DNA of 29,562 bases from Nanobdellota archaeon (GTDB lineage Archaea; Nanobdellota; Nanobdellia; Pacearchaeales; UBA12030): positions 1-29,562 of the forward strand of contig JACZVS010000001.1 of NCBI GenBank assembly GCA_022572525.1, read 5' to 3'. Shown here piece by piece: positions 10,706 through 23,509 of this stretch. Both the position numbers and the translations under genes were made by a program. A model generated the notes under the pieces. That model was not told the DNA's origin and made no database searches. It was given only the letters and a program-made list of their open reading frames with translations. The number at the start of each line of letters is the position of its first letter. The stretch's first letter is position 1.

Positions 10706-12520
10706 ATGGAATCTGAAGATAGAGAAAATACGTTAGCTAAGAATTTGCATGAAGTCAGTAAGCGCAAGGAATCCACTCCTAGAGAAATTTCTCCCGAGTT
10801 GAAGAAAGAGCTTGCAAAGATTAAAGAAAAAATAGAGAAATTTAGTAAAGAGGTTGTTAAGAAATTCCCTTACATTATCTCAATTGGACTGCTCCCTACT
10901 CTTCCACCAATGCATCCTAAGCAAGGTTCTCCTGTTCAAGCTCCTTCCCCAAAAGATAAAGAAAAGGAGAAGCGAAAACCAGAAGTCATCATTGTCTTTC
11001 CAGACGATAAGTTAAAGGAAGTCAAGAAGCTTGAGAAGGATGTCGCTGAAATTGTGAAGAAACAGAATCTTGCCATCAATTTTTTCACTAGATCTCCTAA
11101 AGAATTATGGCAAACTTGTTTTGATGGCCACTTTGCCGAGATGGAAAGGATAAGCATGGCGTATCCTCTTCATGATAAAGGGGTTTTATCTGCGTTAAGG
11201 GTTGCCACAATCCATAAAAATCTTGTTCTCAGGAAGTTTGAGAAGTATGTCACCTCTTATGTAATTGCTGGGAGTCTTGTCAGAGGACAGGCAACGAAGA
11301 CAAGTGATATTGATATTTATGTTGTCATAGATGATACAGATGTTAAGAGGATGCCTCGGTTTGAGCTTAAAGAAAGGCTTAGGGCTATGATCTATAGTTA
11401 TGCTTTTGAAGCAAACGAAATTGCAGCTGCAAAGAATAAACTTTCTCCCCAAGTTTATATCCTTACTGAATTTTGGGATTCTGTGAAGGATGCGAATCCC
11501 GTAATTTTCACTTTCATCCGGGATGGAGTGCCTCTCTATGATAGGGGAGCATTTATGCCATGGAAGCGTCTTTTGCAAATGGGGAAGATAAAACCCTCTC
11601 CAGAAGCTATTGATAATTTTATGTTGTTAGGAGAGAAGCTAGGTAAGAGAGTAAAGGCAGATTTACTTAGAATTGCCACAGAAGACATTTACTGGGGAAT
11701 CATTACTCCAAGTCAGGCAGCTTTAATGCTTTATGGATTGCCTCCTCCAACCCCTATTGAAACAATTGACTTAATGGAGAAAACTTTTGTTGATAAAGAG
11801 AAGCTGCTCGAGAAGAAATACATAAAAATATTGGAGAGAGTTGTTGGTCTTTATAAGGATTATGAACATGGTAAACTGAAAGAGGTTAAGGGAAAAGACA
11901 TTGATGAGTTGCTCGTAGATGCCTCCTCTTATATTAAAAGACTTAAAGTCCTAGTTAAACAAATAGAAAAGCAAGCAGGAGAAAAAACCACTCTTCAACT
12001 GTATGATGATGCTTTCTCAATTCTCAGAAAAATTCTTGGAAACGGGTCAGAACAAATAATTGTTGAAAAATTTTATAAGGAAATAGTTAACAAAGGAGAG
12101 ATGCCTCCAAAAAGCTTGGTAGTTCTAAGAGAGATTATTAAGGCAAAACAAGACTATAAGAAAGGAAAGTTGAGCAAGCAAGAGATTGATAGGGTAAGAA
12201 GAGATGGTCAAGAGTTTATCTTTGCGATTACAGAATATGAACAGAGAAAGAATCTCATACTTACAGAGAAAGCAAGGTTTAAAGTAAAGATATCTGGAAA
12301 GCTAGCAGATCTCTATATTTTTGACGATGCGTATCTTATTTCTGGAGAAAAGAAGAAGGAAGTTTTGAGAGTCAATTTGAAAAAGAAGAAGTTAGAGGCA
12401 TCTAATCTTGATGAGGTGGCAGAAAAGCTTAAGAATGTTCCAAAGCAGATTGAAGTTACTCCTGAAAAGATTAATGAGATAAGAAAAATTATAGGTAAAG
12501 AGATAACGTTTCTCTTTTGA
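10706..12520 (+). CDS. Pol-beta superfamily nucleotidyltransferase with degenerate N-terminal NTase copy, HEPN-like bundle and helical C-terminus
   Basis: IAGSLVRG-x5-SDIDIYVVIDD; LYW..SxAAL..G HEPN-like helix (IYWGIITPSQAALMLYG). Confidence 0.8.
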   Translation: MESEDRENTLAKNLHEVSKRKESTPREISPELKKELAKIKEKIEKFSKEVVKKFPYIISIGLLPTLPPMHPKQGSPVQAPSPKDKEKEKRKPEVIIVFPDDKLKEVKKLEKDVAEIVKKQNLAINFFTRSPKELWQTCFDGHFAEMERISMAYPLHDKGVLSALRVATIHKNLVLRKFEKYVTSYVIAGSLVRGQATKTSDIDIYVVIDDTDVKRMPRFELKERLRAMIYSYAFEANEIAAAKNKLSPQVYILTEFWDSVKDANPVIFTFIRDGVPLYDRGAFMPWKRLLQMGKIKPSPEAIDNFMLLGEKLGKRVKADLLRIATEDIYWGIITPSQAALMLYGLPPPTPIETIDLMEKTFVDKEKLLEKKYIKILERVVGLYKDYEHGKLKEVKGKDIDELLVDASSYIKRLKVLVKQIEKQAGEKTTLQLYDDAFSILRKILGNGSEQIIVEKFYKEIVNKGEMPPKSLVVLREIIKAKQDYKKGKLSKQEIDRVRRDGQEFIFAITEYEQRKNLILTEKARFKVKISGKLADLYIFDDAYLISGEKKKEVLRVNLKKKKLEASNLDEVAEKLKNVPKQIEVTPEKINEIRKIIGKEITFLF

Positions 12521-12522
12521 AA

Positions 12523-12780
12523 ATGGAAGGAATAGTTGTAAGTTTTAGGCGGGGTAGGCATAGGTATAAGCCACGGCAGTTTATTATTAAAGCTGACGGA
12601 GTAGAAAAGAAGGCAGATGCTGAAAAGCTTATAGGCAAGGCAGTTATTTGGAAAAGTCCTGCTGGCAAAGAAATTAAAGGTAAGCTGACCGTTTTGCATG
12701 GTAGTAAGGGCTTGTTGCGCGCTTTGTTCGAGAAAGGCTTGCCTGGCCAAGCTGTTACTGAAAAGGTTGAGATAAAATAA
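12523..12780 (+). CDS. rpl35ae: 50S ribosomal protein L35Ae (eL33)
   Basis: SFRRGRH, LIGKAVIWKSP, HGSKGLLRALF, LPGQA. Confidence 0.95.
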   Translation: MEGIVVSFRRGRHRYKPRQFIIKADGVEKKADAEKLIGKAVIWKSPAGKEIKGKLTVLHGSKGLLRALFEKGLPGQAVTEKVEIK

Positions 12781-12794
12781 AAAGTAAAAGGAAA

Positions 12795-13136
12795 ATGAGT
12801 AGTCTTTTTGAAAAGAAATGCATTCCATGTAGGGGAGGAACTCCCCACCTAGTGTTAGAGCAAATTCAACAATATCTTTCCCAAGTAGAAGGATGGAATC
12901 TGGAAGAACAAGAAGGCCACCATCAAATTATTAAAGAGCATAAATTTAGAGACTTTAAAGAAGCGCTAACCTTTGTCAATAAGGTTGGAGAAATTGCTGA
13001 GCAGGAAGGCCACCACCCCAATATTTACTTATACAGCTACAACAAAGTTAGGCTAACTCTTTACACTCATGCTATAGGTGGGTTACATGAGAATGATTTT
13101 ATTTTTGCAGCTAAAGTCGATGCACTTTCTAAATAG
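12795..13136 (+). CDS. phhB: Pterin-4-alpha-carbinolamine dehydratase family protein
   Basis: CIPC N-terminus, FRDFKEAL.FVN, AEQEGHHP, LYTHAIGGLHENDFIFAAK. Confidence 0.92.
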   Translation: MSSLFEKKCIPCRGGTPHLVLEQIQQYLSQVEGWNLEEQEGHHQIIKEHKFRDFKEALTFVNKVGEIAEQEGHHPNIYLYSYNKVRLTLYTHAIGGLHENDFIFAAKVDALSK

Positions 13137-13178
13137 AAAAAGATTTAAAAATTTTAATTGTTTTAGAACAGCAAGAAA

Positions 13179-13703
13179 ATGGCATTACGAAAAGCAATAG
13201 CTTATAGGTTTCATGAAAAACCTTACACAAGGAAAAGCAGAAAAAGGAGAAAGAACTATATCAGAACAATTCCTGGAAATAAGATAGTGAAGTTTCATAT
13301 GGGAAATATAAAGAGAAAATTTTCTATCAGGCTCTCTTTGATATGTAATGAAAAGATTCAAATGAGGGACAATTCAATTGAAGCTGCAAGAATCACAATA
13401 AATAGACATTTGGAAGATAGACTTGGAAGGAATAATTTTTATTTTTCTGTAAGAGTTTATCCTCATCATATTTTAAGAGAAAATAAAATGCTTACAGGAG
13501 CAGGAGCAGATAGAATGCAGTCTGGCATGAAGAAATCTTTTGGCAAGCCTATGGGAAGAGCTGCTCAGATGAACATAGGGGACGAGATATTTGAAGTGGG
13601 TGTTAACAACTCGGGCCTTGCTCTCGCAAAAGATGCCTTCCGAAAGGTCAAGGCAAAACTTCCTTGTACGACATCTGTTTTGTTAAAAAGAATTGGCGGG
13701 TGA
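13179..13703 (+). CDS. rpl10e: 50S ribosomal protein L10e (uL16)
   Basis: NSIEAAR, RVYPHHILRENKMLTGAGADRMQSGMKKSFGKP. Confidence 0.97.
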   Translation: MALRKAIAYRFHEKPYTRKSRKRRKNYIRTIPGNKIVKFHMGNIKRKFSIRLSLICNEKIQMRDNSIEAARITINRHLEDRLGRNNFYFSVRVYPHHILRENKMLTGAGADRMQSGMKKSFGKPMGRAAQMNIGDEIFEVGVNNSGLALAKDAFRKVKAKLPCTTSVLLKRIGG

Positions 13704-16509: not shown

Positions 16510-17382
16510 TCATTCCTCAAGAGCTCTTACAAGCTTTGCCATTTCGCCTACAAATGAATCTACCCTATCGATGTATGCATCGATAGTTGATCCTTTTATT
16601 ATCTTGACTTCTCCATGAAGAATTTTGTGCATTAATGTGTACATTTCGCGGTAGAGATCAACATATCTCTTTTTCAGTTTTTTCTCTTTTGTAAATGTTT
16701 CATAAAGCAAGAAGGCAATGTGCTCTGGAGATGGAGGGGGTTTTCCTGCTGCCATTAAAGCTGCATGTGATGAGTCTACACATGCCCAGTAAAGGCCTTC
16801 TATTACAGCGAGCATCGATGTTCTACTTCTTGCAATATGTGCAGGACTTCTTCTTAGAGCAACATAAATAGCTTCTGGCGAAGGTCTTATCTTCCCTCTT
16901 TGCAGTAAAATTTTGAGTGGAGTGAAAAAGCCTCCAAAATCAATTAATGGCTCGCCGTAACGAATAATATTTATCACAACAGGCTCTCCTCTTATCATTT
17001 CCTCCCACCATGTTGTTAATCTTACTGTGTTTATGTGCAATTTTTTCGCATAACTTTGCGAAGCAACAAGGATTGCAAGCTCTTCTCGATACCAAGCAAC
17101 CATTTCAGCTGTCCAATCAACATTTGCATCATCAACAATTACAATGATGTCGATGTCACTTTTATGAGCTGCAGTTCCTTTAACTTGCGAACCAAATAGA
17201 ACTATGCTTTTAATGACTTCTGCACTAAATCTCTTGTAAACTTTAGCTGCAAAATCTTCAGCAATTCTTCTTTCAGGAGTTATTCTTCCAATAGGCTTTT
17301 CAACTTTCCTAACTCTTGGTTTTGAATGTGTACGCCTTTTTTTACTAATGATCTTTGCCCTTGCCCCTTTTTTCCTTCTCAT
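16510..17382 (-). CDS. Nucleotidyltransferase + HEPN-like fusion, paralog of 10706-12520
   Basis: LFGSQVKG-x5-SDIDIIVIVDD; LYWACVDSSHAALMAAG; shares LLQ.GKI.PSPEAI with the 604-aa protein. Confidence 0.82.
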   Translation of the reverse strand: MRRKKGARAKIISKKRRTHSKPRVRKVEKPIGRITPERRIAEDFAAKVYKRFSAEVIKSIVLFGSQVKGTAAHKSDIDIIVIVDDANVDWTAEMVAWYREELAILVASQSYAKKLHINTVRLTTWWEEMIRGEPVVINIIRYGEPLIDFGGFFTPLKILLQRGKIRPSPEAIYVALRRSPAHIARSRTSMLAVIEGLYWACVDSSHAALMAAGKPPPSPEHIAFLLYETFTKEKKLKKRYVDLYREMYTLMHKILHGEVKIIKGSTIDAYIDRVDSFVGEMAKLVRALEE

Positions 17383-17419: not shown

Positions 17420-19324
17420 TTACTCTGCAGGCTGCCCTGTAAATGTTTGTCTTCTCTCTCCAGGCATTTCTCCTCCTAATTCTGATGGAAGAGCCGAGAA
17501 TGATGGAGAGCCATAAGTTCTGAAGTGGAAGTCAGGAAGGAATTCTCCATAGCCTTGGAAGTATGATCCATAAGTTCCTCTTATTTGGTTCCAATAAGGT
17601 TGTGACATCATTGTATAAAGTGGACTTCCTAAAGCTTCTAACACATATGGGTGTGGATTTGTCTTGAAGTGCTGGACAAAGCCGGAAGCTTCTACAATCT
17701 GCGGAGCTTTGATTCCTTTTTGTTCAAGAACTGCAAGTGCTTCCTTATAAGGAATATTTCCCATGCCGGGAGGTAGGTGAGAGTCTGCAAAGCCAAAGTT
17801 ATCTGTAAGATGAACTTTCTTTATGTACTCGGCAACTTTTTTTGTTTCTTCTGTAACAAACTTCTCTGGAAAGCCGTGTCGCCTTAACATGTTGATATGG
17901 CCGTAATCCCAAGTTACTCCGATAAGTTTCTCGGCAGCATTTCGCGCAGCTGCTTCTGCCATGCCTTGTTCTTTTGCTTTTTCAACAAATCTTTTCCTTG
18001 CAGCATTTATTACTTTTACAGAATCCTCTCCGGTTGACATTACAGTCTCAGGATAATTTTCTAGGGCAATAACAGGAGCTTTACTCCCAAACTTTTTCCA
18101 AACTTTTAGGGCCGCAGCAGCTGTAGTTTCAGCAACCTTCTCTGTTCCAAATTCATCTGCCGGTTTCCATTTTTCTGGAGGTGGTAGTTGCATTATTTTG
18201 TTATTCAACTCCTGTATTAATTTGTCTGAGTAAACATTGTTCTTGATATTGTCCATTTCTGGACCAACAATCTCTTTCACACTTTCCTGAAGATGTTTGG
18301 TATAATCTTTTTGTCCGTGTTTCATGAAGTCATTATACATATTTCTTAATGACATGTATTGATGGAAATTTGTTTCTTTAAGCGGCCATTCAATTTGCTG
18401 CAGTCTAGTGATTTTTTCTGCAGCCTCTTTTTCATCTGGCAAGAGGGCATGGCCAAATCTGCCTTTCCTCTCTATCTCGCGAATCTTCTGCTCTGGAATA
18501 TTTTTTATACTTTCTTTCAACATTCCATATTCCTCTGCTGGAATCATTCGTGCAAGTCTTGCCTTTTCCTCTTCAAGTCTAGCAATTCCAAACCTTTCAT
18601 TTTCCCATTCAGTTAAGTTAAGGGAATCAATCCTGCTTTTAGGATCAAATTCAATTATTCCTTCAGGCCATATTTGCCTTTCATATCTAACTTCTCTTAT
18701 CTGCCCAGTATCTGGATTAACTGCAAGTATGCTTTCCTGCATTCTCTCATTCTTCAAATCTGAGATCCGATCTCTTTCGCTTTCATGAAGTTTTCTTTTT
18801 GCCTCTTCTGCTCTGCCTTGAATGTTTTGTATCATCTCATCAGCTTCTTTCTTTGGAACATGAACCCATTTCTGTAAAGGCAGAGGAGGACCTGCGTGGA
18901 ATGTTACAGGAATATTTCCTTCTGGATCTAATTCATGGGCCTTCTCAAGTGCATCAACAACTTGGGCTTCTGCCATCTTCCTTAGCCTGTTATCCCATCC
19001 TTGTTGAGAGAAGCCGGCAAGATCAATTATAGGACCATGCATGGTCATTTTTGTACCTGTGACTTCTGCCAATCTTTTCATCTCCTTAAAGTGTTGTTTA
19101 GGAATTGCCTCAAAAACATCTTGCTGAATTGCTCCAACTTCAACTATCTTCATGCCCGTGTTCAAGAGACGAGAAGCCTGCCTTATCTGATCGGCTGTCA
19201 TTGGAGATGTCGGAGCTCCAATATCTGCATGAGCCATTCTATGGCCAGTAAAATATTCTCCGAATTCAGGCTCAAATGGAGTGTGGCTTCCTACATAAAA
19301 ATTCTCATAAGCAGCTTCTTCCAT
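17420..19324 (-). CDS. Xylose-isomerase-like / AP-endonuclease-2 TIM-barrel metalloprotein with large insertion
   Basis: TMHGP, TFHAG, ALENY, WDYGH, VHLTDN, DSHLPPG.G, IVE motifs. Confidence 0.8.
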   Translation of the reverse strand: MEEAAYENFYVGSHTPFEPEFGEYFTGHRMAHADIGAPTSPMTADQIRQASRLLNTGMKIVEVGAIQQDVFEAIPKQHFKEMKRLAEVTGTKMTMHGPIIDLAGFSQQGWDNRLRKMAEAQVVDALEKAHELDPEGNIPVTFHAGPPLPLQKWVHVPKKEADEMIQNIQGRAEEAKRKLHESERDRISDLKNERMQESILAVNPDTGQIREVRYERQIWPEGIIEFDPKSRIDSLNLTEWENERFGIARLEEEKARLARMIPAEEYGMLKESIKNIPEQKIREIERKGRFGHALLPDEKEAAEKITRLQQIEWPLKETNFHQYMSLRNMYNDFMKHGQKDYTKHLQESVKEIVGPEMDNIKNNVYSDKLIQELNNKIMQLPPPEKWKPADEFGTEKVAETTAAAALKVWKKFGSKAPVIALENYPETVMSTGEDSVKVINAARKRFVEKAKEQGMAEAAARNAAEKLIGVTWDYGHINMLRRHGFPEKFVTEETKKVAEYIKKVHLTDNFGFADSHLPPGMGNIPYKEALAVLEQKGIKAPQIVEASGFVQHFKTNPHPYVLEALGSPLYTMMSQPYWNQIRGTYGSYFQGYGEFLPDFHFRTYGSPSFSALPSELGGEMPGERRQTFTGQPAE

Positions 19325-19389: not shown

Positions 19390-20043
19390 TTACAAGTTAA
19401 ATTCTTTTTGAAGTCTTTTTTTTAAGGTTGTGTCCCAATCAAGAAGGTCTCTCGCAACATCAACTCTTCCTACATATCTTTCAATCTGTTGACCAGCAGC
19501 TGGCTGACCAGCTTCACCTTTTGCCGCTCCAAAACTAGTCACAATTCTTGCAAGTTCTCCTTGGTCAAGTGTTCTGTCTGCCTCTGCAAGTGTTGGTATT
19601 CCTGTAGAATATTGTGTTTCGTATGAACCTTCATAAGCTTCAGTTGTAGCTCCATAAGGAACTTCTGCCTCTGTTATGCCGGCTCCTGAATAAACCTCTC
19701 CGGCCTTTGCAGTGTAAGGGCTGCCAGCTGCTCCTGCCTCTCTTTCCTCTCTTACATACTCTTTTTCTTCTGTTCCAGTATCAGCACGCTCTCCAGTTCT
19801 AAGCCCAAGAGTCTCTTCAATACTTCCTTCTGTTCCTGCTTCTACTTCAAACATCTCAGGCATTCCAGTTGACAAGAAGCCTTCAACATCTCCTACCGAT
19901 ATGTCTTCAGAAAGAGCCTCTTCTGTTTCTAGGGTTTCTTCTAGCTGTTCTTCCCCTATTCCTATATCTTCTTTTCCTTTACTTTCTAAAGTGGAAGCTA
20001 GTAATTTCTCAGCTTGCTCTTGCTTTTTCTTATTGGCCGGCAT
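19390..20043 (-). CDS. Acidic low-complexity hypothetical protein
   Basis: 217-aa ORF rich in E/G/A/T; CTTTTTATAAA box upstream (reverse strand, about 20062-20072). Confidence 0.7.
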   Translation of the reverse strand: MPANKKKQEQAEKLLASTLESKGKEDIGIGEEQLEETLETEEALSEDISVGDVEGFLSTGMPEMFEVEAGTEGSIEETLGLRTGERADTGTEEKEYVREEREAGAAGSPYTAKAGEVYSGAGITEAEVPYGATTEAYEGSYETQYSTGIPTLAEADRTLDQGELARIVTSFGAAKGEAGQPAAGQQIERYVGRVDVARDLLDWDTTLKKRLQKEFNL

Positions 20044-20090: not shown

Positions 20091-21524
20091 TTACTCCCCT
20101 GGAACAGATTCAAACTCCCATAGCGGAGTTGGCATGCCATGAGCTTTCTTGTATAAATGGTAAGTTAGCCAGGCTCTCCTAATAGCGTCTGGATTTGAGA
20201 TCAGGGCTCTGATTTGCCTCTCAACAAAAGTTTCTTTTCTCAGCTTCAAAACTTTTTCCTTTTCTTTAGGCTTGGATCCAAGAAGCTTTTCCAAGAAACT
20301 CCTAGTATCTTTTTCTTCCTTCTTTTCCCCCTCCATATACTTTAAAAGATCTTCATAAATTGGCTCAAGGGAGTCAGTAGTTATCCCCTCTATCAAACGT
20401 AAGCCTTCATAAAGATCTTGGTTCTCAATCTCTTTCTTAAGAAGATTGTATTCATCACCATTTAAAACATAGGCTTTGAGAACAACTCTTGCTCTCCCGC
20501 TATGAACATAGTGGGAAGATTCTGCCCTGCTGGCAATTCTCGGTAATCCTCTGAAAGTAAAATCGGCAAATACGCATGAATAATAATCCTGCCTCATTTT
20601 AATATTCCAGAGTTTTTCTGGAAATATTCCTGCTCCAATGGCCTTTCTTACACCCTCGAGATCAATTTTTGACTTTGCCAAGATTTGAAGTTCTAAAACA
20701 ATAGTGTTGAAAGAAGTTATAATATCTGCACTACTAGGGCTTGGACCTGCTGCTCCTAATTCTTTTCTCATCATTAGTTCTTCAGCTGCCTTTAAATATG
20801 GTTTCACCCAACGTGTGTAAAGTTTGACAGCGCTTACTTGGCTTTTAAGATATGTTTTCTGCAATTCATGGCGATTGCGTAACTCTCTCTCACTTCTGCC
20901 TAGCCAGTCAAGAAATTCCCCCATCCTTGGTTTTAATAGTCTCTTGACTCTTTCATTTAGATCCATCTTATCAACTTCTTCTGGCTTCTTGGCTTTCATA
21001 AAAGCATCTCTTAATGTTACAAAATCCAGCTGTTGAGTTAACATATTGATGCTTCCTGCGCCTCTTCTTATATCAACTCTGTCCATCCATATCTGTTTGA
21101 GTGCGAGCAATCCTCCTTCTTTTTCCCTCTCATTTTTGCCCCTATACTTATTGTAATGTTCGAGCCTGATTTCAAATTCTTTGAGATCATAAATTAAATT
21201 AAGTACGCTTCGCATAACAGTGTTGATGGTAGCAAGAATCTTCATGCCTTGCTCTTGCATTCTTGTTGCTCTTGCTCCTATGTCTGCGAAGTATCCACTT
21301 CCGGGAGAAGCTATAAAGTTATCTACAAGCTTCTCAACTTCCATTCCAAAACCTGACCCGCCTGTTCCTCGCATGATATCGAGTATCCAGAAATAGACTG
21401 GCTCAAGTGTTTCGGCGAGCGCATCATAAGTAAGCCTGAACTCTGCAAGAGGTTCTGCCTTCTGGAATTCCTTGCCTTTCTTCAAGCCTCTTACCTTTCC
21501 GATAAGTGAGTCTATATCTACCAT
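20091..21524 (-). CDS. Uncharacterised mostly helical 477-aa protein
   Basis: Long ORF with non-random motifs EPVYFW, SPGSGYF, WMDRVD, DFVTLRDAF, KPYLKAAE. Confidence 0.8.
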   Translation of the reverse strand: MVDIDSLIGKVRGLKKGKEFQKAEPLAEFRLTYDALAETLEPVYFWILDIMRGTGGSGFGMEVEKLVDNFIASPGSGYFADIGARATRMQEQGMKILATINTVMRSVLNLIYDLKEFEIRLEHYNKYRGKNEREKEGGLLALKQIWMDRVDIRRGAGSINMLTQQLDFVTLRDAFMKAKKPEEVDKMDLNERVKRLLKPRMGEFLDWLGRSERELRNRHELQKTYLKSQVSAVKLYTRWVKPYLKAAEELMMRKELGAAGPSPSSADIITSFNTIVLELQILAKSKIDLEGVRKAIGAGIFPEKLWNIKMRQDYYSCVFADFTFRGLPRIASRAESSHYVHSGRARVVLKAYVLNGDEYNLLKKEIENQDLYEGLRLIEGITTDSLEPIYEDLLKYMEGEKKEEKDTRSFLEKLLGSKPKEKEKVLKLRKETFVERQIRALISNPDAIRRAWLTYHLYKKAHGMPTPLWEFESVPGE

Positions 21525-21557: not shown

Positions 21558-21896
21558 TTATGGTTTTTGGTTAGGATTATTGTCAAAACGAATTAATTCT
21601 CTGTAGTAGTCTAGAGTTTCACTCATCTTTAGTTTTAATTTTGCTGTTCTTGATACTTTCCCTAAATTCCCCTTTACAGATAATACCGAGAGAATGAAGT
21701 CGATCTGTCCAAGAGGCAGGATTCTTGCAATGTCGGCTTCTTTTCCTTTTAATTCTTTTATACCTGTCTCGATAGATTCCCTTATACTTATTATCTCTAG
21801 ATTATCTATCGTGCTCTCTTCAAATGGCTGCAGTTCTTCCAGCACTAATAGTAAATCCTCTTTTGATAGTTTTTTAATTTGTGGTTTTCCTAACAT
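21558..21896 (-). CDS. Hypothetical protein
   Basis: 112-aa ORF starting 3 nt after the ATPase stop; likely co-transcribed. Confidence 0.55.
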   Translation of the reverse strand: MLGKPQIKKLSKEDLLLVLEELQPFEESTIDNLEIISIRESIETGIKELKGKEADIARILPLGQIDFILSVLSVKGNLGKVSRTAKLKLKMSETLDYYRELIRFDNNPNQKP

Positions 21897-21899
21897 GTT

Positions 21900-22520
21900 T
21901 CACTTCCCTTTAGCCTGTCCGATAACGTAAACTCCCAAATTATTGTCTCTTCTGATTTCTCCAAGAATCATTTCAACCCTTTTTTCTATCCCCCCTTCTC
22001 CGTCTGAAATTAAAGGAATAGAAGTTATCTCGAGTCCCTGTTTTTCATAAACTTCATAAATCTTTTTATGAATTATTTTACCTTTTTCTTCATCTTCTGC
22101 TCTTTGATCGTCTTGTTGATATGGAACTTGTTCCAAGAAGAAAACTTTATTGTAGTTTGCTGATTGTATTGCAGGTTGAACTATATGGGATATGTCTATT
22201 CCTCCAAGCTCCGCATAAGCAATCTGATCGATATTTGATCTGTCTAATATGTGGATACCTGATGGAGTTCTTTTTTCCGCTTTCTTTTCTAGTGCAAGCT
22301 GTCTGCCTATAACAAGAAATTGGAATTCTTCAAGACCATTCCAGGGAAGTATTCCTTGATATTCTCTATCTCTTTCCTCTCTTCTTTGTTCATCTTCAAT
22401 TATGTGTCTTGCAGCTTCTGGGACAACCGTATAACCTTCATCTCCTAGTCTCTTAACAAGAGTGGTCTTTCCAGAACATGGTCCTCCTGTTAGTATATAC
22501 TTTCGAATTTCTTCCATCAT
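21900..22520 (-). CDS. P-loop nucleotide kinase/ATPase, AAA_28 (NadR-type kinase-like)
   Basis: ILTGGPCSGKTT Walker A, VPEAAR, LDRSNID, VFFLE, QRAED; start moved to 22520 because upstream extension runs through the promoter region. Confidence 0.85.
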   Translation of the reverse strand: MMEEIRKYILTGGPCSGKTTLVKRLGDEGYTVVPEAARHIIEDEQRREERDREYQGILPWNGLEEFQFLVIGRQLALEKKAEKRTPSGIHILDRSNIDQIAYAELGGIDISHIVQPAIQSANYNKVFFLEQVPYQQDDQRAEDEEKGKIIHKKIYEVYEKQGLEITSIPLISDGEGGIEKRVEMILGEIRRDNNLGVYVIGQAKGK

Positions 22521-22532
22521 TCCGATAATATT

Positions 22533-22630
22533 ATAGAGTTGTATTTTAGTTATAGACTTCTTACCATAAAATGTACATAGAGTTGTACTTTTTAGAAAGA
22601 TTTTTAAGGTTTTAAGGCCATAAATTATGG
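22533..22630. promoter_or_regulatory. Divergent promoter region with candidate operator repeats
   Basis: ATAGAGTTGTA at 22533 and 22577; inverted repeat CCATAA-A-TTATGG at 22618-22630. Confidence 0.55.
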
Positions 22631-22642
22631 GGGTAAGGGAGA

Positions 22643-23509
22643 ATGTTTGATGATACAGTAAAAAGGGCAATTCTTGATGCTGTTAGAAAACAGCCAAGAA
22701 GTGTAGATGAGCTTGCAAGCATTATTGGGAAAAACTGGCGAACAGCAGATAGGTATGTTCAAAGAATTGTAGAAAATGAAGGGAGTATTGCAATAAGAAC
22801 CTTTAGAGAGGGAACAAGGGGAGCACTTAAGATAATATATTGGACTCCTCCAGAAAGCATTCATTCAAGTGAATTCCAAGAAAGACTTTTCAAGCGGATT
22901 GAAATGGGTAAGAAAAAAGATGATTTCAGTCCTTCAGAAATTTATCAATATGTTGATAATAAAAAAAAGAAAGCTGAAATTCTAACTCAAAAATATATTA
23001 ATTCAAACAAGAATTATGAAAATTTCAAACAAGAGTTATTGAAAGCAAAATCAGAGGTTTTCTTCTATTCAGGAAACCTTTCTTTAGTAAACAGTGGAAA
23101 TGAAAAAGAAAATATAGGTGACATTATAGAGAAACTTGCGAAAAGGGGGGTGAAAATCAGAATACTTACAAGGGTCGAACTCCCTGGAATTGAAAATGTT
23201 AAACGTATTTTGGAAATAAACAACAAATTTGGAAAAAAGATGACGGATATAAGACATTGTTTCCATCCTCTCCGAACTACAATAGTTGATGATAGAGTTG
23301 TAATACTAAAAGAAGAGAGAAAACCAGAAGAGTACGGGAAGGGAGAATTAGGGAATTTAAATGAAAAAATTACAATTCTTTACCGCATCTATGACAAAGA
23401 ATGGATAGAATGGCTAAAGAAAACTTTTTGGGTTTTGTTCAGATCTTCTATTAGTGCAGAAAAAAGAATTGAAGATATCGACAGAATGAAGTTATACAAG
23501 GTAAGATAG
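22643..23509 (+). CDS. Transcriptional regulator, N-terminal winged HTH + TrmB-like effector domain
   Basis: ILDAVRKQPRSVDELASIIGKNWRTADRYV HTH; LAKRGVKIRIL and RTTIVDD typical of TrmB/PLD-like fold. Confidence 0.7.
   Translation: MFDDTVKRAILDAVRKQPRSVDELASIIGKNWRTADRYVQRIVENEGSIAIRTFREGTRGALKIIYWTPPESIHSSEFQERLFKRIEMGKKKDDFSPSEIYQYVDNKKKKAEILTQKYINSNKNYENFKQELLKAKSEVFFYSGNLSLVNSGNEKENIGDIIEKLAKRGVKIRILTRVELPGIENVKRILEINNKFGKKMTDIRHCFHPLRTTIVDDRVVILKEERKPEEYGKGELGNLNEKITILYRIYDKEWIEWLKKTFWVLFRSSISAEKRIEDIDRMKLYKVR

Follow-up and report, generated by a model that had tools for sequence, protein, structure and literature searches.

A 634-residue protein encoded in the genome of a Nanobdellota archaeon is modelled as a complete (β/α)8 barrel of the xylose-isomerase-like/AP-endonuclease-2 superfamily (AP, apurinic/apyrimidinic) that is split at its third strand by a large domain found only in its own family. 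The gene lies on the minus strand of a 29,562-nucleotide stretch of DNA (GenBank assembly GCA_022572525.1, contig JACZVS010000001.1, positions 1 to 29,562), here called the window, where it occupies positions 17420..19324 including the stop codon; the reading frame translates into 634 residues with no internal stop. All features given below with coordinates of the window are on the minus strand unless a region is named as such. The gene is a core housekeeping enzyme gene of the Pace-/Woesearchaeota phylum (Nanoarchaeota/Nanobdellota). In sequence alignments a suitable residue stands at each of the nine positions that hold the three metals of endonuclease IV (EndoIV), and our preferred reading, held with slightly better than even confidence, is that the protein is a multi-metal phosphoesterase that carries a family-specific lid domain on its catalytic face and belongs to a conserved phylum-wide module.

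The superfamily assignment comes from sequence and from structure prediction. The Pfam family PF01261 (AP_endonuc_2, xylose-isomerase-like TIM barrel) is matched with 55.8 bits against a cut-off of 31.1 over residues 369-547, corresponding to profile positions 76-230 of 249 only, and homologues carry PF01261 too. MJ1311 (PDB 3WQO, 293 residues) is the only solved protein found by sequence, with E-values of 2.4e-8 for the single protein and 8.6e-11 for the profile, and aligns in two pieces that pair query residues 78-143 with chain residues 60-119 and query residues 462-540 with chain residues 181-255. An AlphaFold2 prediction of the 634-residue protein from a 119-sequence alignment has a mean predicted local distance difference test score (pLDDT) of 87.3 and a predicted template-modelling score of 0.83, with residues 30-570 confident. 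The top Foldseek match of the model is again 3WQO, with a template-modelling (TM) score of 0.72 on the target. VIA-align, for which each PDB sequence cluster was represented by a single structure, superimposes the model on 3wqo_B with a Z-score of 24.7, a root-mean-square deviation of 2.5 Å, 248 of 267 residues aligned over model residues 33-568 and 23% identity; ketose 3-epimerases follow at Z about 23 and three EndoIV structures at Z 22.1-22.2. All 50 VIA matches listed (Z 16.8-24.7) are superfamily barrels, each spanning model residues ~30-570, so the two halves form one closed (β/α)8 barrel surrounding the insertion. An earlier note, made from the DNA letters alone, had described a TIM-barrel metalloenzyme split by an insertion and named two outcomes that would count against it, a predicted structure that fails to close the barrel and a family that maps to a known sugar epimerase with no linkage to neighbours; neither is seen, and the structure prediction of the single protein does close the barrel. 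The same note had placed the metal ligands His143 ('VTFHAG') and Glu422 ('ALENY') 279 residues apart, which is the distance found in the translation.

The chain is organized into five parts. An N-terminal arm (residues 1-29, 19238..19324), seen in the family consensus and modelled at pLDDT 36-69, precedes the first part of the barrel (residues 30-143, 18896..19237), which comprises strands 1-3 and the invariant His96 and His143. The insertion domain (residues 144-388, 18161..18895) occupies the loop after strand 3 and is supported by DSSP, pLDDT >90 and conservation. The second part of the barrel (residues 389-573, 17606..18160) runs from helix 3 to strand 8 and holds Glu422, Asp473, His476, His505, Asp508, Asp514/His516 and Glu545, and a Tyr/Gly/Pro-rich C-terminal tail (residues 574-634, 17423..17605) closes the chain.

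The extent of the insertion is best seen by comparison with six canonical-size EndoIV-like proteins of related genomes. When alignment columns 148-386 are removed, the family profile aligns globally with these paralogues over 245 columns (hhalign E 6.6e-5), whereas the uncut profile gives an off-register local match only. The equivalent His-to-Glu spacing in the paralogues is 39 residues, which sets the insertion at about 240 residues beginning directly after the strand-3 'FH'. Across 119 homologues the His143-Glu422 spacing ranges from 222 to 316 residues with a median of 249, indicating that the insertion is a family trait and not an artefact. A barrel-splitting insertion of roughly this size had been proposed beforehand, and the model, VIA-align and the insertion-free profile alignment all agree with it.

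From strand 3 (139-143) the model proceeds through a strand at 151-155, helices at 158-174 and 181-191 and a four-stranded sheet at 194-226, followed by six helices between 228 and 378, before the regular barrel resumes with helix 389-415 and strand 418-422; the insertion through strand 418-422 is modelled at pLDDT >90. Conservation is distributed unevenly over these elements. The charged helical hairpin at residues 158-193 (18746..18853) is lineage-specific according to gap statistics, with 75% gaps in other members and a median length of 4. The conserved core, residues 194-260 (18545..18745), consists of the four-stranded sheet with its 'VNxETG' hairpin and the helix 228-260; both are near-fixed in length, the helix counting 33-34 residues in every member. 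Within the core Trp240 is invariant and Gly207 and Asn236 are conserved at ≥90%, and the 'V(N/D)..TG' hairpin is retained in class members of just 22-25% identity. The earlier description of a charged, coiled-coil-like arm thus fits the lineage-specific hairpin and fails for the conserved core, which is modelled as a four-stranded sheet with a helical bundle. The insertion yields nothing meaningful in Pfam, and a structure search of the ESM Atlas returns only its own family (TM 0.63 and 0.52), all remaining rows being at ≤0.36. Judged on the model, the insertion is a domain found only in the split-barrel family and not a simple coiled coil. Foldseek, VIA and Atlas searches returned no other AP-endonuclease-2 barrel with a 240-residue domain at the strand-3 ligand, and to our knowledge none is known.

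Both ends of the chain combine conservation with predicted disorder. The N-terminal arm carries the aromatic-rich family consensus motif Y.G.Y..L.P.YG..FTGYR and is disordered in the model. The tail had been picked out in the earlier note as conserved-looking, and its conservation does equal that of the barrel, with a mean commonest-residue frequency of 0.61 and 14 columns at ≥90%, even though it is modelled at pLDDT <50. Tyr570 is conserved, as is Tyr588 within the tail, and in most phylum members the chain ends in Pro-(Leu/Met)-Glu, with Pro-Ala-Glu in the 634-residue protein. Conserved disordered ends of this type would usually be expected to fold on a partner.

The putative metal site is strictly conserved in the family. 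His96, His143, Asp473, His476, His505, Asp508 and Glu545 do not vary among the 119 sequences, of which 118 also have Glu422; in distant class members all of these residues are likewise invariant, save for His505, which is nearly so. Asp508 is conserved but does not count among the nine equivalents of EndoIV ligands. The residues at 514 and 516 covary among the 119 members, reading Asp..His in 49-50 sequences and His..Glu in 66-68, and both forms keep one carboxylate and one imidazole, a joint swap of the kind that a shared metal site predicts. The insertion-free alignment with the EndoIV-like paralogues pairs His96 with His68, His143 with His108, Glu422 with Glu147, Asp473/His476 with Asp176/His179, His505 with His216 and His516 with His230; seven ligand positions are therefore aligned in register, with Asp514 and the last Glu matched by motif alone. 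We take the equivalent ligands of Escherichia coli EndoIV to be His69, His109, Glu145, Asp179, His182, His216, Asp229, His231 and Glu261. The proposal that EndoIV-type ligands are intact is hence upheld by conservation in 119 homologues and by register with the paralogues. The Glu-Asp-His-Glu tetrad of single-metal enzymes is also present (Glu422, Asp473, His505, Glu545) and does not discriminate an epimerase from EndoIV.

The split enzyme is distinct from a second, shorter group of EndoIV-like proteins in the same lineage. It does not match the curated nfo model (NCBIfam TIGR00587) as a single protein at E ≤0.01, nor in the genome scan, and none of 41 related genomes contains a gene above the nfo curated cut-off. 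A separate protein of ~260-300 residues with sub-threshold nfo similarity (best 85 bits against 129.65) is encoded by 34 of the 41, and the six examples that we aligned (from relatives G016, G009, G010, G011, G023 and G025) have all nine ligands. Standard annotation would consequently miss the probable AP endonuclease of the order. The two groups differ in the motif that follows the strand-2 histidine, which is 'HGPI.DP.G' ('HGPI(I/V)D') in the long family and 'HAPYWIN' in the short proteins; in E. coli EndoIV, Tyr72 and Leu73 of this motif insert into DNA. We considered whether the long barrel could be the sole AP endonuclease of these genomes and rejected this, as most relatives have the ~280-residue EndoIV-like gene. 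No such ~280-residue protein was found in the source genome, whose assembly is 76% complete. The source genome does encode a second PF01261 protein of 257 residues that adjoins cysS (G000:C50:13289-13969; L028:1459-2232, minus) and gives weak matches to epimerase, CbiR and nfo models; phmmer detects no similarity between it and the nfo-like group.

The gene is present throughout the phylum. A word-indexed search recovered 141 full-length relatives of 557-670 residues, which, if they have a name, are called 'sugar phosphate isomerase/epimerase', 'TIM barrel protein' or 'hypothetical', and the gene was found in 39 of 41 relatives, including all 17 high-quality genomes. With a narrow profile built from close relatives only, 261 of the phylum's 301 genomes score as positive, a tally that, like the one for the 477-residue protein described below, includes unpublished genomes (G277 in the counts of both genes, G276 in that of the 477-residue protein); these two genomes enter into no other result. 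Absence from some families, which this number might suggest, was ruled out as false negatives of the narrow profile: with a broader profile the gene is found beside the gene for the 477-residue protein in four of five 'negative' genomes, and full-length, single-copy matches are found in 99 of 101 genomes of the Pace-/Woesearchaeota phylum. One of the two remaining genomes (G098), the smallest sampled at 0.5 Mb and assembled in one contig, has a divergent 713-residue frame with three collinear weak matches (G098:C1:185979-187742) and also a weak match to the 477-residue family (E 1.7e-12). Flags of a TAA codon inside the gene in one family proved to be natural stop codons only.

Searched against 1.84 billion representative proteins, the family retrieves 744 clusters at E ≤1e-30, of which the best 150 all measure 523-773 residues. 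The 119 aligned members measure 557-670 residues and open frames across the phylum are similar in size, with none of the compactness of MJ1311 at ~290 residues; apart from fragments of the split-barrel family, no shorter relatives turned up when these were sought. Of 80 loci, all but one 'Bacillota' bin are titled as Pace-, Woese- or Nanoarchaeota or just as an 'archaeon', and the Atlas matches are assigned to Nanobdellota. The exception, a 'Bacillota bacterium' locus (L051, DATKUW010000032.1), shows the archaeal gene order of 477-residue protein gene, middle open reading frame and TIM-barrel gene and is for this reason probably a mis-binned archaeal contig. One further homologue (P0110) is titled 'Patescibacteria group bacterium'.

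The enzyme gene is part of a four-gene module with the order 477-residue protein, charged disordered protein, TIM-barrel enzyme and nucleotidyltransferase. In the window these are a 477-residue protein of no known family or fold (20091..21524), recognized through synteny and prevalence, an acidic, disordered-looking protein of 217 residues (19390..20043), whose slot is conserved by position while its sequence is not alignable, the enzyme itself, and a 290-residue nucleotidyltransferase (16510..17382; PF01909) with a GS...DxD core and a helical C-terminal domain, encoded directly after the enzyme gene on the same strand. Among species-representative loci the nucleotidyltransferase gene lies downstream in 61 of 64 and the 477-residue protein gene upstream in 57 of 64. 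The corresponding counts are 15/15 and 10/15 in other families of the order, and 8/14 (with two more nearby) and 14/14 in distant class members. At 75 of 81 loci the space that separates the 477-residue protein gene from the enzyme gene holds an open reading frame of 140-260 residues, whose product is very charged. These counts substantiate the linkage to nucleotidyltransferase, 477-residue and 217-residue-type genes to which the earlier note had drawn attention. Each of the four genes has its own AT-rich TATA-like box upstream.

The three partners differ widely in what can be learned from them. The nucleotidyltransferase has a Lys/Arg-rich N-terminus and an isoelectric point of 9.9, and among curated models it comes closest to the MntA adenylyltransferase. 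We considered whether it might supply a CCA-adding activity otherwise lacking, with the barrel repairing the 3' ends of tRNA, and rejected this, as 38 of the 41 relatives, source genome included, encode a full-length CCA enzyme of the archaeal type (TIGR03671, E-values between about 1e-60 and 1e-88). Within the last 15 residues of the charged partner a [KR]Y motif, often preceded by 'PFE', occurs in 44 of 71 distinct sequences, whereas in shuffles the count averages 5.3 and never exceeds 12; the window's own 217-residue protein does not have it. Two loci of distant genomes (L111 and L123, from G230 and G207) have no separate open reading frame between the 477-residue protein gene and the TIM-barrel gene, and their TIM-barrel frames of 670-699 residues start right after the upstream gene. 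The 477-residue protein is found in 297 of 301 genomes and is more conserved than the enzyme, and none of its >2,400 relatives has a Pfam domain. Its model is fair (pLDDT 80.9). Foldseek returns nothing at E ≤0.001, the Atlas nothing, and the best VIA match (Z 8.2, to a small KA1-like α+β unit and generic helical hairpins) is at noise level; sequence searches of Pfam, PHROGs, NCBIfam and PDB likewise gave nothing.

Beyond the module, a 604-residue MNT-HEPN gene (NEQ050 family) and the gene for ribosomal protein L10e are found within ~5-8 kb of it in several families (loci L015, L016, L020-L022, L026 and L112). In the window the region 10706-13703 contains these two genes together with L35Ae and a pterin-4a-dehydratase-like gene, and the module can be said to show a loose wider synteny with translation genes. 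Immediately upstream of the module and on its strand, positions 21558-22670 encode an AAA_28/NadR-like kinase-type protein of 256 residues and a 112-residue protein, with gaps of 3 and 33 nucleotides; neither gene was found beside the module in other loci.

If the protein is a multi-metal phosphoesterase, as we are somewhat inclined to believe, a phosphoester bond would be hydrolysed by a multi-metal centre as in EndoIV. The β-to-α loops of such barrels carry the active site, so the insertion should exit on the catalytic face, where it would act as a lid or help to select the substrate instead of being a passive arm, and the conserved disordered ends together with the helical part may be docking sites for the other module proteins. 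Ordinary abasic DNA would probably not be the substrate; more plausible candidates are a particular end of a nucleic acid or a group linked to a nucleotide, processed jointly with the neighbouring nucleotidyltransferase. Several observations weigh against this assignment. AlphaFold2 does not model metals, and both the convergence of the ligands and their covering by the insertion are deduced from barrel topology. No NCBIfam model is reached, the only match being NF007360, a fructoselysine 3-epimerase, with 19.4 bits where the cut-off is 305. The sugar-epimerase tetrad is also present, the nearest solved structure is titled 'D-tagatose 3-epimerase-like', and the fold and sequence searches with the 477-residue partner have given no functional clue. 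An unlikely alternative is a sugar or sugar-phosphate isomerase or epimerase in which Glu422, Asp473, His505 and Glu545 hold a single Mn or Co ion. The names of homologues in their source records ('sugar phosphate isomerase/epimerase'), the D-tagatose, D-allulose and L-ribulose 3-epimerases among the top Foldseek and VIA matches and the conserved tetrad would all be accounted for. However, five metal-type residues for which epimerases have no need (His96, His143, His476 and those at 514/516) are invariant or covary, and these extra residues argue for a multi-metal, hydrolytic centre. Moreover, no curated epimerase model is reached, the conserved neighbours are not sugar-pathway genes, and a sugar enzyme would be odd as a near-universal single-copy gene in genomes of 0.5-1 Mb with minimal metabolism. 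It is quite unlikely that the protein is instead the lineage's DNA-repair EndoIV, acting both as AP endonuclease and as 3'-repair diesterase and using the insertion to clamp DNA or a partner. The nine ligand positions, Z-scores of 22 to EndoIV structures and the lack of any gene above the nfo cut-off in the 41 relatives speak for it, as does the listing of MJ1311 as a predicted EndoIV (PMC2770678). It is opposed by the separate canonical-size EndoIV-like gene of 34 of the 41 relatives, with ligands and 'HAPYWIN' in the six aligned examples, and by the replacement of that motif with 'HGPI(I/V)D' and the unmatched nfo model in the long family. MJ1311, for its part, reportedly has no DNA-binding groove.

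The neighbouring nucleotidyltransferase invites a further, improbable explanation, in which it nucleotidylates a tyrosine in the enzyme tail or in the partner's [KR]Y motif as a writer and the TIM-barrel phosphodiesterase removes the nucleotide as an eraser. MntA AMPylates a tyrosine of HepT, and the GS...DxD core of the nucleotidyltransferase is intact with MntA as its nearest model; the enzyme-nucleotidyltransferase gene pair is conserved, Tyr570 and Tyr588 are conserved in the disordered tail, and the partner motif is far more frequent than in shuffled sequences. Yet the case is wholly circumstantial: the window's 217-residue protein does not have the motif, the basic N-terminus and isoelectric point of the nucleotidyltransferase fit a nucleic-acid substrate at least as well, and linkage to the nucleotidyltransferase gene is looser in distant orders (8/14). 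A protein without catalytic activity that has become a structural component of a complex centred on the 477-residue protein could also have long helices, disordered yet conserved ends and a highly conserved partner that does not look like an enzyme, but strict conservation of nine ligand positions and a compensated swap at 514/516 would be unexpected for a dead enzyme, making this highly improbable. A broader and speculative proposal, to which we assign a rather low likelihood, would combine all four genes into a previously unrecognized housekeeping machine specific to Nanoarchaeota/Nanobdellota, with the nucleotidyltransferase adding and the EndoIV-type centre removing a nucleotidyl group whose carrier is a tyrosine in one of the module proteins or the end of an RNA or DNA, and with the 477-residue protein, whose fold was not seen before, as scaffold.

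A literature search found no paper on the split-barrel family. In the main survey of archaeal dark matter, from 2019, NEQ050 and NEQ484 belong to the four priority families for DPANN, and neither a TIM barrel nor an isomerase appears in the text (PMC6393860). A large part of DPANN diversity is accounted for by Pace- and Woesearchaeota, tiny symbiotic archaea whose genomes of 0.5-2 Mb have retained only a small gene set. An enzyme that occurs as a single copy in ~99% of the genomes examined, beside an equally universal 477-residue protein of no known fold, must serve an indispensable role, and despite this near-universality its public labels are 'sugar phosphate isomerase/epimerase' or 'hypothetical'. 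The EndoIV-type site with its compensated swap, the predicted family-specific lid domain, the disordered ends and the defined partners provide handles for investigating its function.

Compared with characterized members of the AP-endonuclease-2 superfamily, the split enzyme widens the known structural range of this barrel. CbiR, a cobamide-remodelling phosphodiesterase (NF041277; AP_endonuc_2), acts on a small molecule and shows that the superfamily includes phosphodiesterases with non-DNA substrates. This is a functional analogy only, as the long protein has no detectable specific similarity to CbiR, whose model is matched only by the 257-residue protein (44 bits against 105). Ketose 3-epimerases (D-tagatose/D-allulose 3-epimerase; PDB 2OU4, 7DZ2 and 8XIV) share the fold and the tetrad with the split enzyme, which differs by its five extra metal-type residues, insertion, tail and non-sugar genomic context. 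EndoIV (Nfo/Apn1; PDB 1QTW, 3AAM and 8AXY) shares the fold and the nine metal-site positions, while in the split enzyme a large insertion probably occupies the catalytic face and the DNA-inserting motif of strand 2 is replaced. The closest known relative by both sequence and structure is MJ1311 of Methanocaldococcus jannaschii, titled 'D-tagatose 3-epimerase-like protein' in the PDB and tabulated in 2009 as the predicted EndoIV of this organism (PMC2770678, Table 1). The alignments with MJ1311 have in common 'H.P', the strand-3 His, 'D.GH', 'H.H..DN' and 'D..HL..G.GNI'. In contrast to this compact 293-residue barrel, the split enzyme adds the ~240-residue insertion, a conserved N-terminal arm, a 60-residue tail and its place in a four-gene module.

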